39,809 bases of DNA from Candidatus Aenigmatarchaeota archaeon (GTDB taxonomy: Archaea > Aenigmatarchaeota > Aenigmatarchaeia > CG10238-14 > SpSt-28). The stretch's first letter is position 1, and the number at the start of each line of letters is the position of its first letter. The notes beneath the pieces are model-generated. The model had not been told where the DNA came from. It saw only the letters and a program-made list of their open reading frames with translations, and made no database searches. The position numbers were made by a program, and so were the translations under genes. Positions 15,448-31,860 of this stretch are shown here, one piece after another. Where the stretch lies: NCBI GenBank assembly GCA_032249395.1, contig JAVVFY010000007.1, positions 1 to 39,809 on the forward strand, written 5' to 3'.

Positions 15448-16235
15448 TTACTCACATTTACTAACAGATAGTTTGTTCAAGAAGAAATCTTTTATTTTTC
15501 TTTGCCAAGAATCTTTCTTCAATACTTCTTCAAAGACCCACCTCTTAACTTTCTTATTATCTTCTAGAAGCTTTCTTGCAATATCTTTGACAGTTTCCCA
15601 GTGAAGTCTTAAATAATCTGGTGGTTTTTCTTCTGTTTGCATTATCTTTTCTATAAACAATCTTGTTTTCTTATCATGGGCATAACCGACACCAAAATCA
15701 AAGTTAACCCTTTTCTTAATTTCTTCAATTTCTTTATCTCTTTCAACTTTAGCAACTATTGAAGCTGCAGAAACTACAGGAATTTTTTCATCTAGATAAT
15801 TTTTAACAACGAGTTTTACATTTTTTTCATTTGGCAAGAATTGTTTAATCATTTTTTCAAACTTCTCACAATTTTGTTCTATCGAATCAACGTAGATCTT
15901 CTCAACATTATCTAACATATTAATTATATCTGCGATCTTCATCGCTTCTAGTTTATCGAGATTTATTCCTTTAGAATTAAAGTAGGAAATTTTGCAGGCA
16001 GAAACTTTAACTACAATAATATCTTTTGCTATATTTTCTATTTGCTTAAACAGCTCTTCCCTTTTCTTCGGATTAAGCTGTTTAGAATCTCTAACACCTA
16101 ATATTTTTAGTTTTTTAGAATCTCTACTACTTATAGATACTCCAGCTAATACCATTGGACCTATAACAGCTCCGCGGCCTGATTGACGCCTTCTTTTAAG
16201 AAGGTTTCGTCTATGCCGCAGATTATAGAGCTAAT
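15448..16235 (-). CDS. rnhB: Ribonuclease HII, interrupted by a 23-nt insert (exon 1 16235-16206, exon 2 16182-15448; 254 aa if joined)
   Basis: Joined N-terminus IICGIDE|SGRGAVIGPMV; RDSK, VDS, VSAASIVAKVERD, FGVGY motifs; C-terminal PIP box QRKIKDFF. No in-frame ATG/GTG/TTG in exon 1; ATT start inferred from the SD. Confidence 0.9.
16183..16205 (-). other. Putative bulge-helix-bulge pre-mRNA intron (23 nt)
   Basis: ACCTTCTTAAAAGAAGGCGTCAA. 4-bp GACG/CGTC helix flanked by 3-nt bulges AAA and AAT; cutting after the 2nd nt of each bulge removes exactly this segment and restores D-E-S-G-R-G. Confidence 0.85.
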
Positions 16236-16421
16236 AATAGCACCCCCAACTTATTTATTAACACCCCCTATTCATTGAGGTTTTGTTGTGAAAGTTATTT
16301 ACTTTTTTGTTTAATCTAAATATAGCTAGGATTGAGTTAGAACTTTTCATAATTAATACATAAATTTTTCAATATAAAAGATTTTCAAAAGTTATATTCT
16401 TCTATTTTTGTCAAAATAATT

Positions 16422-16853
16422 ATGAGGTTAGATGAAATAGAGAAATTTATTAGAAGTGGAAAGAATATTGAGGATATTTTCAGTCTATTTAATTGGAGGG
16501 AGTTTGAAGAAAAAGTTGAAGAAATATTTAGAATTCATAATTTCAAAACTATAAAAAACTTCAGGTTCAAGACTACAAAAAGGTTTGAAATAGACATATT
16601 AGCCGAAAAAAGAGACTTACTGTTTGTTGTAGATTGTAAACAATGGGGCAAAGGAAGAAATAAGACGAGTGCGTTGAAGAGAGCTGCTGATAAGAATTCC
16701 GAAAGAGCAGAAGAACTTAAAAACACTCTAATGGGAAGAAACAAGATAATTATTCCAATTATAATATCTCTTTTTGATGAAGGTATATACGAGCATCATG
16801 GAGTTTACATTGTTCCATTGTTTAAGTTGAATAATTTTCTATTGCAATTTTAG
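16422..16853 (+). CDS. PD-(D/E)xK restriction-endonuclease-like protein (Mrr/NERD-like)
   Basis: WREFEE...EIDILA...VVDCKQW pattern. Confidence 0.8.
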   Translation: MRLDEIEKFIRSGKNIEDIFSLFNWREFEEKVEEIFRIHNFKTIKNFRFKTTKRFEIDILAEKRDLLFVVDCKQWGKGRNKTSALKRAADKNSERAEELKNTLMGRNKIIIPIIISLFDEGIYEHHGVYIVPLFKLNNFLLQF

Positions 16854-30393: not shown

Positions 30394-31860
30394 TTAGTCT
30401 CCTTTTATCACAGCAATTGGTTTCAATCTAACAACTCTTTTCGCTAAACCCGCTTTCTCACAAACTTCAGCAACTTCATCAACTGGTTTGTATGCTTCTG
30501 GAGCTTCTTCAGCAACTCCTTTCCAACTCCATGCCTTAACTAAAATTCCTCTTTGTTGCAACTTTCTAGCTACTTCCTCCCCTCTAAATTCTCTTAACAT
30601 TTTTGCTCTAGAAGCTCTTCTTCCTGCTCCATGAGCTATAGAAGCAAAAGATTCTTCTTCAGCTTTCTTAGTTCCAATTAAAATATGGCTTGCATCACCC
30701 ATAGAACCAGGAATGAGTGATACCAACCCATATCTTCTATATTTTGCTGGTGTGCCAGGCCAATCAGGACCATAAGCTCTTGTAGCCCCTTTTCTATGAA
30801 CTAAAACTTTCATCTTCTTCCCATCTATTTCATGCTCTTCAAGCTTAGCCATGTTGTGGGTAATGTCATAAATTAAATTTAATCCTAAGCTTTCTGCATC
30901 TTTCTTAAAAACTTTTTCAAAACTTTCCCTAATCCAATGAGTTATCATTTGCCTGTTAGCAAAGGCAAAGTTTGCTGCAGCGTTCATAGCCCCAAAATAA
31001 TCATAAAAAGTTTTAGTACCGCTAGGAGCAAAAGCTAGTTGTCTATCTGGTAATTTCCTTAACCAATCTTTATGTTCTCTTTCCATAATTTGTAAGTAGT
31101 CTGTAGCTACCTGATGACCCAATCCTCTAGAACCGCAATGAACCATAACAGTAACTTGTCCTACTTGCTCTATTCCTAAAGCTTTGGCCACTTCAGGTAA
31201 ATATATTTTATCAACTACTTGAATTTCTAGAAAATGATTACCAGAACCCAAAGTTCCAAGCTGATCCTTTCCTCTATCAATAGCTTTTTTGGAAACTTTT
31301 TCTGGTTGGGCTAATTTTTCCTCGTTACCATTATCTTCCATATACTCTAGATCTTCTTCCCAACCATATCCATTTTCCACTGCCCATTTCGCTCCATATT
31401 TTAAAACATCGTGCATTTTCTCTGAAGCTAATTTTATTACTCCACCTTTGCCAACTCCAGCAGGAACTGCTCTAAAGATTTCATCAACCAACTGCTCTAA
31501 ATACGGCTTTATTTCCTCGTGAGTAAAGTTTGTCCTTAGTACTCTAACTCCGCAGTTTATATCGAAGCCTACTCCACCTGGCGATATTCCTCCTTCTTCA
31601 TAGCTAATTGCTGCTACTCCTCCTATAGGAAAACCGTAACCCCAATGCATATCTGGCATTGCTAAAGACCATTTCTGAATTCCGGGCAAAAATGCAACGT
31701 TTGCCACTTGTTCTATTGCTCCCTCTTCAACATCCTTAATCATTTCTTCTGACATGAATATTTTTCCAGGAACTCTCATTCCTGGTTTTGCATCTTTCGG
31801 CAATTCCCATTCATAGTCACTAATTTTCTTCAGTTTATCTTTCAAGCTAATTTTAACCAC
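30394..31860 (-). CDS. rtcB: tRNA-splicing ligase RtcB
   Basis: MPDMHWGYGFPIGG, DINCG, GSGNHF, HRKGATRA, PGSMG, HGAGR, EEAPEAYK. True start may be ATT 31851. Confidence 0.97.
   Translation of the reverse strand: MVKISLKDKLKKISDYEWELPKDAKPGMRVPGKIFMSEEMIKDVEEGAIEQVANVAFLPGIQKWSLAMPDMHWGYGFPIGGVAAISYEEGGISPGGVGFDINCGVRVLRTNFTHEEIKPYLEQLVDEIFRAVPAGVGKGGVIKLASEKMHDVLKYGAKWAVENGYGWEEDLEYMEDNGNEEKLAQPEKVSKKAIDRGKDQLGTLGSGNHFLEIQVVDKIYLPEVAKALGIEQVGQVTVMVHCGSRGLGHQVATDYLQIMEREHKDWLRKLPDRQLAFAPSGTKTFYDYFGAMNAAANFAFANRQMITHWIRESFEKVFKKDAESLGLNLIYDITHNMAKLEEHEIDGKKMKVLVHRKGATRAYGPDWPGTPAKYRRYGLVSLIPGSMGDASHILIGTKKAEEESFASIAHGAGRRASRAKMLREFRGEEVARKLQQRGILVKAWSWKGVAEEAPEAYKPVDEVAEVCEKAGLAKRVVRLKPIAVIKGD

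Follow-up and report, generated by a model that had tools for sequence, protein, structure and literature searches.

How can the only RNase HII gene (rnhB) of an archaeal genome encode an active enzyme when 23 nucleotides (nt) break its reading frame inside the catalytic motif? The question is raised by a stretch of DNA of 39,809 nt (the window), which is contig 7 of a metagenome-assembled draft genome of the Aenigmarchaeota (G000; 752,806 bases in 25 contigs, 31.9% G+C). On the minus strand of the window, to which all plain coordinates refer, the gene reads ATC TGC GGC ATA GAC GAA, continues with 23 nt (16205..16183) and resumes with TCA GGC CGC GGA GCT GTT ATA GGT CCA ATG. The insert separates the Asp and Glu codons from the SGRG remainder of the motif, immediately after two catalytic residues. 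A preliminary description of this DNA had read it as a bulge-helix-bulge (BHB) intron in the RNase HII messenger RNA (mRNA). Our analysis supports this reading: the 23 nt are very probably an archaeal BHB-type intron of the rnhB pre-mRNA. Its splicing is predicted from a test of the splicing rule, covariation, rare codons at paired positions, four assemblies and genes for the endonuclease EndA and the ligase RtcB, the enzymes of transfer RNA (tRNA) splicing.

The piece downstream of the insert (exon 2) belongs to the RNase HII family. It matches PF01351 (E 2.1e-40, profile positions 7-199 of 199) and TIGR00729 (E 1.2e-49; 169 bits against a cut-off of 123), and aligns with solved archaeal RNase HII (1uax and 1io2; E about 1e-32) from chain residue 9. 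With the alignment starting there, the eight residues usually found in front of it, the last four being G-I-D-E, are accounted for by the upstream piece (exon 1), which supplies this motif. Exon 2 contains no stops and no frameshifts and shows 73-76% amino-acid identity to congeners. The gene has one match in G000 and is present in 21/21 high-quality relatives as a core, single-copy gene. Without splicing, the frame reads ...IICGIDETFLKEGVNQAAELL and then stops, 24 codons from the ATT at 16235, the length given in the preliminary description. The same letters and the same break between D-E and S-G-R-G were found again. The open reading frame (ORF) that begins at the downstream ATG lacks the first two catalytic carboxylates, as claimed before, and the structure alignment places Asp-Glu in the upstream piece. 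An active RNase HII would depend on splicing, because translation of the unspliced RNA can yield no more than a peptide of 24 residues or an enzyme that lacks the first two catalytic residues.

The RNA around the insert is strongly folded. In the minimum free energy structure of 16240..16160, the order is GCGGC / GACG / CCUUCU-UAAA-AGAAGG / CGUC / GCCGC, with an energy of -28.7 kcal/mol, whereas shuffled sequences averaged -16.3 (z = -4.0; 0/200 shuffles were as stable). The outer helix UCUGCGGC/GCCGCGGA, formed by the two exons, is lengthened by CUAUAA (16228..16223) with UUAUAG, and between the central helix and the hairpin of the intron lies the clean 5' bulge AAA. The helices, this bulge and the hairpin had been drawn in the same way in the preliminary description. 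Its version of the 3' site, a 3x3 loop plus a 3-nt bulge, is one reading of a 3x6 loop that has no clean bulge.

The insert has counterparts in related genomes. In a first pass, 41 of these were searched, rnhB was found in 40, and 30 loci were inspected. One congener (L003) shared the 23-nt insert and its position, the other seven congeners had none, and in four other genera another insert lay a few bases further downstream. The whole order was then searched with the protein of an intact congener gene (L002:1480-2235:-), and rnhB was found in 111/118 genomes. In 38 of the 111 the alignment started at query residue 5 or later, and the DNA of all 38 was read. In every one an insert separates G-I-D-E from G-x-x-I-G-P, which lie 23-49 nt apart versus 9 nt in intact genes. 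The other 73 alignments started at residue 1-3; 24 of them were read as DNA, and none was interrupted. About a third of the rnhB genes of the order (38/111) are interrupted, and all inserts fall within an 8-nt stretch of the motif. In a phylum-wide search, the matches outside the order started at residue 1-4 among the matches listed, with 225 further ones unlisted. In family f21, of the same class but outside the order, 3/35 alignments started at residue 12. Two of these genes (L070 and L093) are interrupted, and the third (L094, genome G205) was left unclassified since no downstream G-x-x-I-G-P was parsed.

The 40 interrupted alleles fall into three intron families, type A and two registers of type B (Table 1), and no gene has two inserts. 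Interrupted and intact alleles are mixed within several genera (interrupted: g1, 2/9; g15, 5/10; g17, 2/8; g11, 5/6), and both types occur in genus g36, each in two species. An intact [G/A]-x-D-E stands directly upstream of the insert in 40/40. Only three inserts have lengths divisible by three (15 and 18 nt), and these contain in-frame stops.

The splicing rule was then put to a test. Each excision was defined solely by in-frame restoration of G-x-D-E-[A/V/S/G]-G-[R/K]-G. Only afterwards was the geometry scored: the two sites had to be separated by 4 base pairs (bp), and both 3-nt bulges had to be cut behind their second base. This geometry holds in 37/39 interrupted genes and in L093, that is in 38/40, across the three intron families. 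When the 3' partner was slid from -4 to +4, the counts were 6, 5, 10, 1, 37 (the true register), 0, 1, 0 and 0 of 39. In the window the rule removes exactly 16205..16183 and restores G-I-D-E-[A/S]-G-R-G, as the preliminary description had stated. The 4-bp central helix is present, and the predicted cuts after the second bulge base would give a functional product.

The predicted pairs covary. In type A (20 sequences, 19 distinct) 88.9% of cells are paired versus 29-46% when slid, and in the second register of type B (14 sequences) 85.1% versus 33-50%. Changes on both sides were counted for 8 pairs and 35 cells in type A, and for 9 pairs and 36 cells in the second register of type B. The covariation scores were 0.298 versus 0.160 shuffled for the former and 0.374 versus 0.152 for the latter, and none of 500 shuffles reached either value, but these shuffle statistics overstate the significance because the sequences are related and not independent. 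The slid controls, in which the relatedness is retained, are still clearly apart from the true register. In type A, compensatory changes occur in all six hairpin pairs. The central helix is 98.7% paired over the 19 distinct sequences, with GAC/CGUC changed to GAU/CAUC in 3, and the outer helix 87.5%; the third base of the Asp codon covaries with the intron (CG 16, UA 3). In type B, 96.4% of central-helix cells are paired, and the third base of an exon Gly codon changes together with its intron partner (GC 5, CG 4, UG 2, AU 1, UA 1). Many type B introns (L013, L025, L060, L062, L063 and L064) also keep an inner hairpin, AAGUC...GAUUU, that is dispensable for the BHB geometry.

The exon flanks also carry the marks of selection on the RNA. 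The window and the intron-bearing congener share 75% protein identity, and 29/59 (49%) of the fourfold-degenerate sites differ between them. In this pair 53/59 structure positions are identical, including 22/23 in the intron, and from the outer helix inwards only three positions differ, none of them paired. Exon flanks are mutually complementary only in intron-bearing alleles: the median exon-exon helix has 5 GC pairs in 8 bp in type A (n=20) and 4 in 9 bp in type B (n=19), versus 2 in 4 bp in intronless genes (n=24). The flanking codons of the window were counted over 405 ORFs of at least 200 codons. CGC accounts for 0.9% of Arg codons, GGC (used twice) for 10% of Gly, GAC for 19% of Asp and TGC for 34% of Cys. 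The claims made beforehand, that these codons are unusually GC-rich and that CGC is rare for Arg, agree with this count. The comparison of rnhB loci among relatives, which had been proposed as a check, thus gave inserts at the same position with compensatory changes, and a conserved structure instead of decay.

These observations are consistent with the following pathway. After transcription the GC-rich exon stretches UCUGCGGC and GCCGCGGA would pair and bring GACG, of the Asp and Glu codons, to the CGUC at the 3' end of the intron. This would leave the 3-nt bulge AAA between the central helix and the intron hairpin, and the 3' site in the loop across the helix. On either side the tRNA-splicing endonuclease would cut behind the second base. 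RtcB, whose gene lies 14 kb off in the window, would then join the exons and probably circularise the intron. The mature mRNA, ...GAC GAA^UCA GGC..., would encode a full RNase HII of about 254 amino acids, probably started at AUU 5 nt after the Shine-Dalgarno sequence.

Both enzymes are encoded by the organism. Besides RtcB, G000 has two EndA genes, one for a three-unit epsilon form of the ARMAN type and one, on G000:C2, for an alpha-type protein of about 185 amino acids. EndA was found in 41/41 relatives searched; the epsilon form occurs only in families f1, f3 and f7, alongside a separate alpha-type EndA. According to excerpts of a 2018 paper, epsilon2 and loop-bearing DPANN EndAs are associated with relaxed motifs and disrupted tRNA genes, and epsilon2 was described there as known only from ARMAN-1/-2 and Mancarchaeum (PMC5829648). 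The tRNA genes of G000 offer comparable substrates. ARAGORN reported introns in 19/45 tRNA predictions, some of them doubtful calls. Several of these introns have the rnhB layout (4-bp helix / Ng^a ... 4-bp partner / aa^a / stem), and introns of 11-12 nt are present.

Table 1. Features of the rnhB locus, splicing genes and compared introns (^ marks a junction)
Feature	Location	Strand	Details
Exon 1	16206..16235	-	10 codons, (AUU)-S-S-I-I-C-G-I-D-E; first two catalytic carboxylates; start codon predicted
Intron	16183..16205	-	23 nt: third base of 5' bulge, hairpin CCUUCU-UAAA-AGAAGG, CGUC (3' strand of central helix), AA
Exon 2	15448..16182	-	244 codons + stop; SGRGAVIGPMVLAG... through RNase HII end; profile and structure matches
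ATG-started ORF	15448..16155	-	235 amino acids; expected gene-caller product; without active-site Asp-Glu
Central 4-bp helix, 5' strand	16208..16211	-	GACG (Asp codon + G of Glu codon), pairs CGUC at 16188..16185
5' bulge	16205..16207	-	AAA; predicted cut between 16206 and 16205
3' splice-site loop	16179..16184	-	AAUCAG opposite AUA (16214..16212); predicted cut between 16183 and 16182
Exon-exon outer helix, 5' strand	16215..16222	-	UCUGCGGC, pairs GCCGCGGA at 16178..16171
Shine-Dalgarno-like sequence before exon 1	16241..16247	-	GGGGGTG
Type A introns	after Glu codon (GAY GAR^GCN)		20 genomes; 14-23 nt
Type B introns, first register	GCU GGA A^GA		5 genomes; 31-32 nt
Type B introns, second register	GCU GGN AG^A		15 genomes incl. 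L070, L093; 28-40 nt
Loci with the AUH-start pattern	window 16233-16250; L003, L010, L015, L016, L022, L028, L036-L048	- (window)	
RtcB RNA ligase gene	30400..31710	-	presumed exon joiner; PF01139 E 9.2e-173; 492-amino-acid open frame
Epsilon EndA gene	G000:C3:59932-61131 (locus L032:1189-2391:-)	-	three-unit, 400 amino acids; full-length match to ARMAN-2 epsilon EndA 4fz2, residues 31-400, E 3e-89
Strain-variant sites	15943, 16053, 16069, 16273, 16335, 16342, 16343, 16364		three 2025 hot-spring assemblies; none in intron or helices
PD-(D/E)XK nuclease gene (Mrr_cat/NERD)	16422..16853	+	143 amino acids; divergent from rnhB; profile
Example tRNA introns with UUUGA element	C1:71188-71287, C1:89844-89947, C4:20739-20842, C6:21145-21268, C5:36039-36152		

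Several findings weigh against splicing by EndA and RtcB. The motif is only the relaxed HBh' form and lacks the two clean 3-nt bulges of the strict hBHBh' motif. In type A the 3' site sits in an internal loop (3x6 or 4x3) and in type B in a bulge of 6 nt; that these EndAs would cleave so relaxed a site outside a tRNA is only predicted. The two genes that depart from the geometry (L038 and L063) have 3/4 bp, with one central-helix mismatch each. The open frame of exon 1 begins after a TAA (16253..16251) and contains no in-frame ATG, GTG or TTG. The relatedness of the sequences bears on the shuffle statistics, as said above, and a search of sequencing runs for the locus found it in 20 DNA runs and 0 RNA runs. 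In families f2, f5 and f6 the intron-bearing relatives showed only an alpha-type EndA (about 190 amino acids), for which reason the epsilon enzyme was rejected as the sole or general enabler of the relaxed motif. This last point and the deviating 3' site could also be taken to mean that the insert leaves the RNA by another route, through a different structure-specific RNase and ligase or by self-cleavage. We consider this quite unlikely. The cuts predicted by the EndA rule are exactly those that restore the frame, the tRNA introns of G000 have the same architecture, and an insert of 14-40 nt is, to our knowledge, too small for any known self-splicing intron. As to the small enzymes, alpha4 EndAs are classically strict, and disrupted tRNA genes go together with alpha-type EndAs of DPANN that have an additional loop, according to the excerpts (PMC5829648).

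The frame could also be restored without any splicing if the ribosome bypassed the 23 nt with the help of the hairpin. A stable hairpin does follow directly after the last codon of exon 1, and the read-through frame soon stops; the gap of phage T4 gene 60 reportedly has a hairpin and a nearby stop as well. Bypass is nevertheless very unlikely, as it needs matching take-off and landing codons and none are conserved in interrupted rnhB. The type B junctions lie inside a codon (AG^A or A^GA), which hopping could not attain, the covarying exon-exon helix would have to be melted by the translating ribosome, and one structural rule fits 38/40 cases in three intron families. The broken frame, the absence of a canonical start in exon 1 and the existence of the 235-amino-acid ATG ORF would also be expected if rnhB were a pseudogene, or expressed only as the truncated ORF, with the insert a chance palindromic insertion. 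Against such decay, which we regard as highly improbable, stand the intact exon 2 with its identity to congeners, the intact [G/A]-x-D-E piece upstream of every insert, the retention of rnhB as a single-copy gene in all high-quality relatives, and an insert region that is far more conserved than synonymous sites and covaries. Finally, the 23 nt might be absent from the DNA of the organism. Apart from the draft state of the metagenome-assembled genome, nothing specific was found in favour of an assembly or sequencing artefact, and we give it almost no credence. The window DNA is found in hot-spring metagenomes. Contigs from 4 runs of 4 studies, placed on 15900..16420 and spanning 16150..16414, were unchanged in 16070..16272, and none lacked the 23 nt. 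One run was identical to the window; the other three represent a strain that differs in this 521-nt stretch by seven substitutions and an inserted T. The independently assembled congener (L003/L077) carries the same insert. The insert thus stands in four independent assemblies, which refutes the artefact.

With splicing as the preferred reading, exon 1 would probably be translated from a non-canonical codon. The start is likely to be the ATT (AUU) at 16235..16233, which lies 5 nt after GGGGGTG, on the grounds of this spacing and of the pattern in relatives. There, whether an intron is present or not, a Shine-Dalgarno-like GGTG(A) is followed after about 5 nt by ATT, ATC or ATA, three to six codons before G-I-D-E, and the N-terminus that begins there has the pattern (I/M)-x-I-C/A-G-I-D-E. 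No canonical start was seen within 12 codons in 13/63 loci, and many others have only a GTG inside the Shine-Dalgarno-like sequence. This pattern suggests the use of AUH start codons for rnhB in the order.

The closest precedent is the intron of the cbf5 pre-mRNA in Crenarchaeota (Watanabe 2002; Yoshinari 2006; Yokobori 2009, PMC2738675). According to excerpts of this literature, that intron is likewise small and within protein-coding sequence, has a relaxed BHB with predicted cuts between the second and third bulge bases, lies at a catalytic residue, so that splicing is obligatory for the active enzyme, and shows a patchy distribution that implies gain and loss. Its authors proposed a negative regulator of expression (PMC2738675). 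The differences are also clear. The host gene is another one, and it occurs in Aenigmarchaeota, of the DPANN, versus Sulfolobales and Desulfurococcales. The rnhB introns form three families, each at its own position within 8 nt, and in the window the first exon has 10 codons; cbf5 has one position. The enzymes in G000 are epsilon-type and alpha-type EndA versus the crenarchaeal heterotetramer of the cbf5 hosts. Splicing of cbf5 has complementary DNA and in vitro support, whereas the rnhB intron is known from sequence alone. The intron family of cbf5 is defined by a position within the catalytic Asp codon of that gene, and the host here is rnhB; the predicted rnhB intron works like the cbf5 intron but is no member of its family.

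Two further groups of archaeal introns are related in mechanism. The intron of HVO_1309 in Haloferax volcanii is likewise an mRNA substrate of the tRNA-splicing endonuclease, and its removal was suggested to matter for expression (Schwarz 2020, PMC7714728). It lies in the 5' untranslated region and has a strict BHB, its endonuclease is a homodimer, and its splicing has been verified both in vivo and in vitro, whereas the rnhB intron lies in coding sequence and is relaxed. As far as the excerpts of that article go, cbf5 was the one other case of a BHB intron on record for an mRNA (PMC7714728). Our literature searches, with supplements and subscription journals outside their scope, found no paper on BHB introns, either of rnhB or of any Aenigmarchaeota mRNA; this agrees with the preliminary description, in which crenarchaeal cbf5 was the known archaeal mRNA intron and none was known in rnhB. 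The non-canonical, relaxed tRNA introns of ARMAN-2 and other DPANN are cut by epsilon2 EndA (Fujishima 2011, PMC3239211; PMC12397907; PMC5829648), of the same class as the epsilon EndA of G000. They have the tiny size range and the arrangement of helix and bulges in common with the rnhB intron. They differ from the rnhB intron in that its host is an mRNA and the exon parts of its motif are codons, not tRNA stems.

Outside the archaea, a short frame-changing intron is removed from the HAC1/XBP1 mRNA by Ire1 cleavage and ligation by RtcB or Trl1, and this is a proven stress-regulated switch. In rnhB, too, a protein endonuclease would cut at a stem-loop, a tRNA ligase would join the exons, and protein output would be tied to a non-spliceosomal pathway. 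The endonuclease is EndA versus Ire1, regulation of rnhB through splicing, an idea of the preliminary description, is only a possibility, and no homology is implied.

On this evidence, rnhB would be a second well-supported gene family with the rare archaeal mRNA BHB introns. The cbf5 gene has been essentially the sole entry on the textbook list of archaeal protein-coding introns for more than 20 years, and rnhB would add another. The comparative material is richer in rnhB, with 40 interrupted alleles, three families in 8 nt, sizes down to 14 nt, and presence and absence within genera. Such closely related intron-plus and intron-minus alleles make the origin and spread of BHB introns directly testable, and the introns form a natural series of minimal non-tRNA substrates for broad-specificity DPANN endonucleases. 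In annotation, gene callers will systematically report rnhB of these genomes as a truncated, catalytically dead protein.

It is a tentative and rather doubtful idea that BHB introns have a hot spot in the 8 bases coding for the last part of the catalytic motif of RNase HII, with at least three independent gains (after Glu, A^GA and AG^A) and repeated losses within genera. If so, tRNA-type introns would still be actively inserted into mRNA-coding DNA in Aenigmarchaeota. A possible route is reverse splicing by EndA and RtcB at codons able to form half a BHB, followed by copying into DNA. It is also possible, alternatively or additionally, that selection keeps the introns, the amount of active RNase HII being tied to the tRNA-splicing capacity.

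A mobile-repeat origin was rejected, as the intron and its hairpin each occur only once in G000 and no second copy of either was found. A homing endonuclease linked to the intron was rejected as well. The Mrr_cat/NERD nuclease beside rnhB is found in 4/6 intron-bearing and 17/24 intronless loci (21/30 in total); because it occurs with and without the intron, its position represents conserved synteny.

The genome-wide scan for BHB inserts that had been proposed as a check recovered rnhB but produced no second convincing coding intron, at a low scanning power. A relaxed scan of G000 for frame-joining inserts showed no enrichment over decoys (1949 vs 3360, then 588 vs 1311), strict GC-rich scans gave 10 real versus 10 decoy hits, and the mirror arrangement gave 9 versus 11. 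Among the strict real hits only rnhB looked coding, the rest being tRNA, ribosomal RNA or noise, and a scan of GC-rich windows in G000 (456 windows) was non-discriminating. These scans do not prove that rnhB is the sole case, because AT-rich or weakly structured introns would be missed and power is low at 32% G+C. In G000, metK, rpl11 and cbf5 are uninterrupted, the last (TruB_N) being matched in one frame.

Some minor observations concern the paralogs of rnhB and the tRNA genes. Family f21 genomes with two rnhB matches were considered as carriers of a split gene, which was rejected since the two are paralogs at distant loci. In G172, G174, G187, G190 and G197 (L072-L076) the second copy is a divergent RNase HII-like paralog with 26-30% identity. 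In G000, ARAGORN called two intron-bearing 'tRNA-Stop(UUA)' genes (C5:36039-36152 and C9:29202-29327), which are probably ordinary tRNAs with mis-set intron boundaries and not suppressors. Many tRNA introns of G000 have in common an element like UUUGA...(G)AUGAUAG that resembles box C/D or k-turn motifs, a hint that these introns may harbour small guide RNAs.

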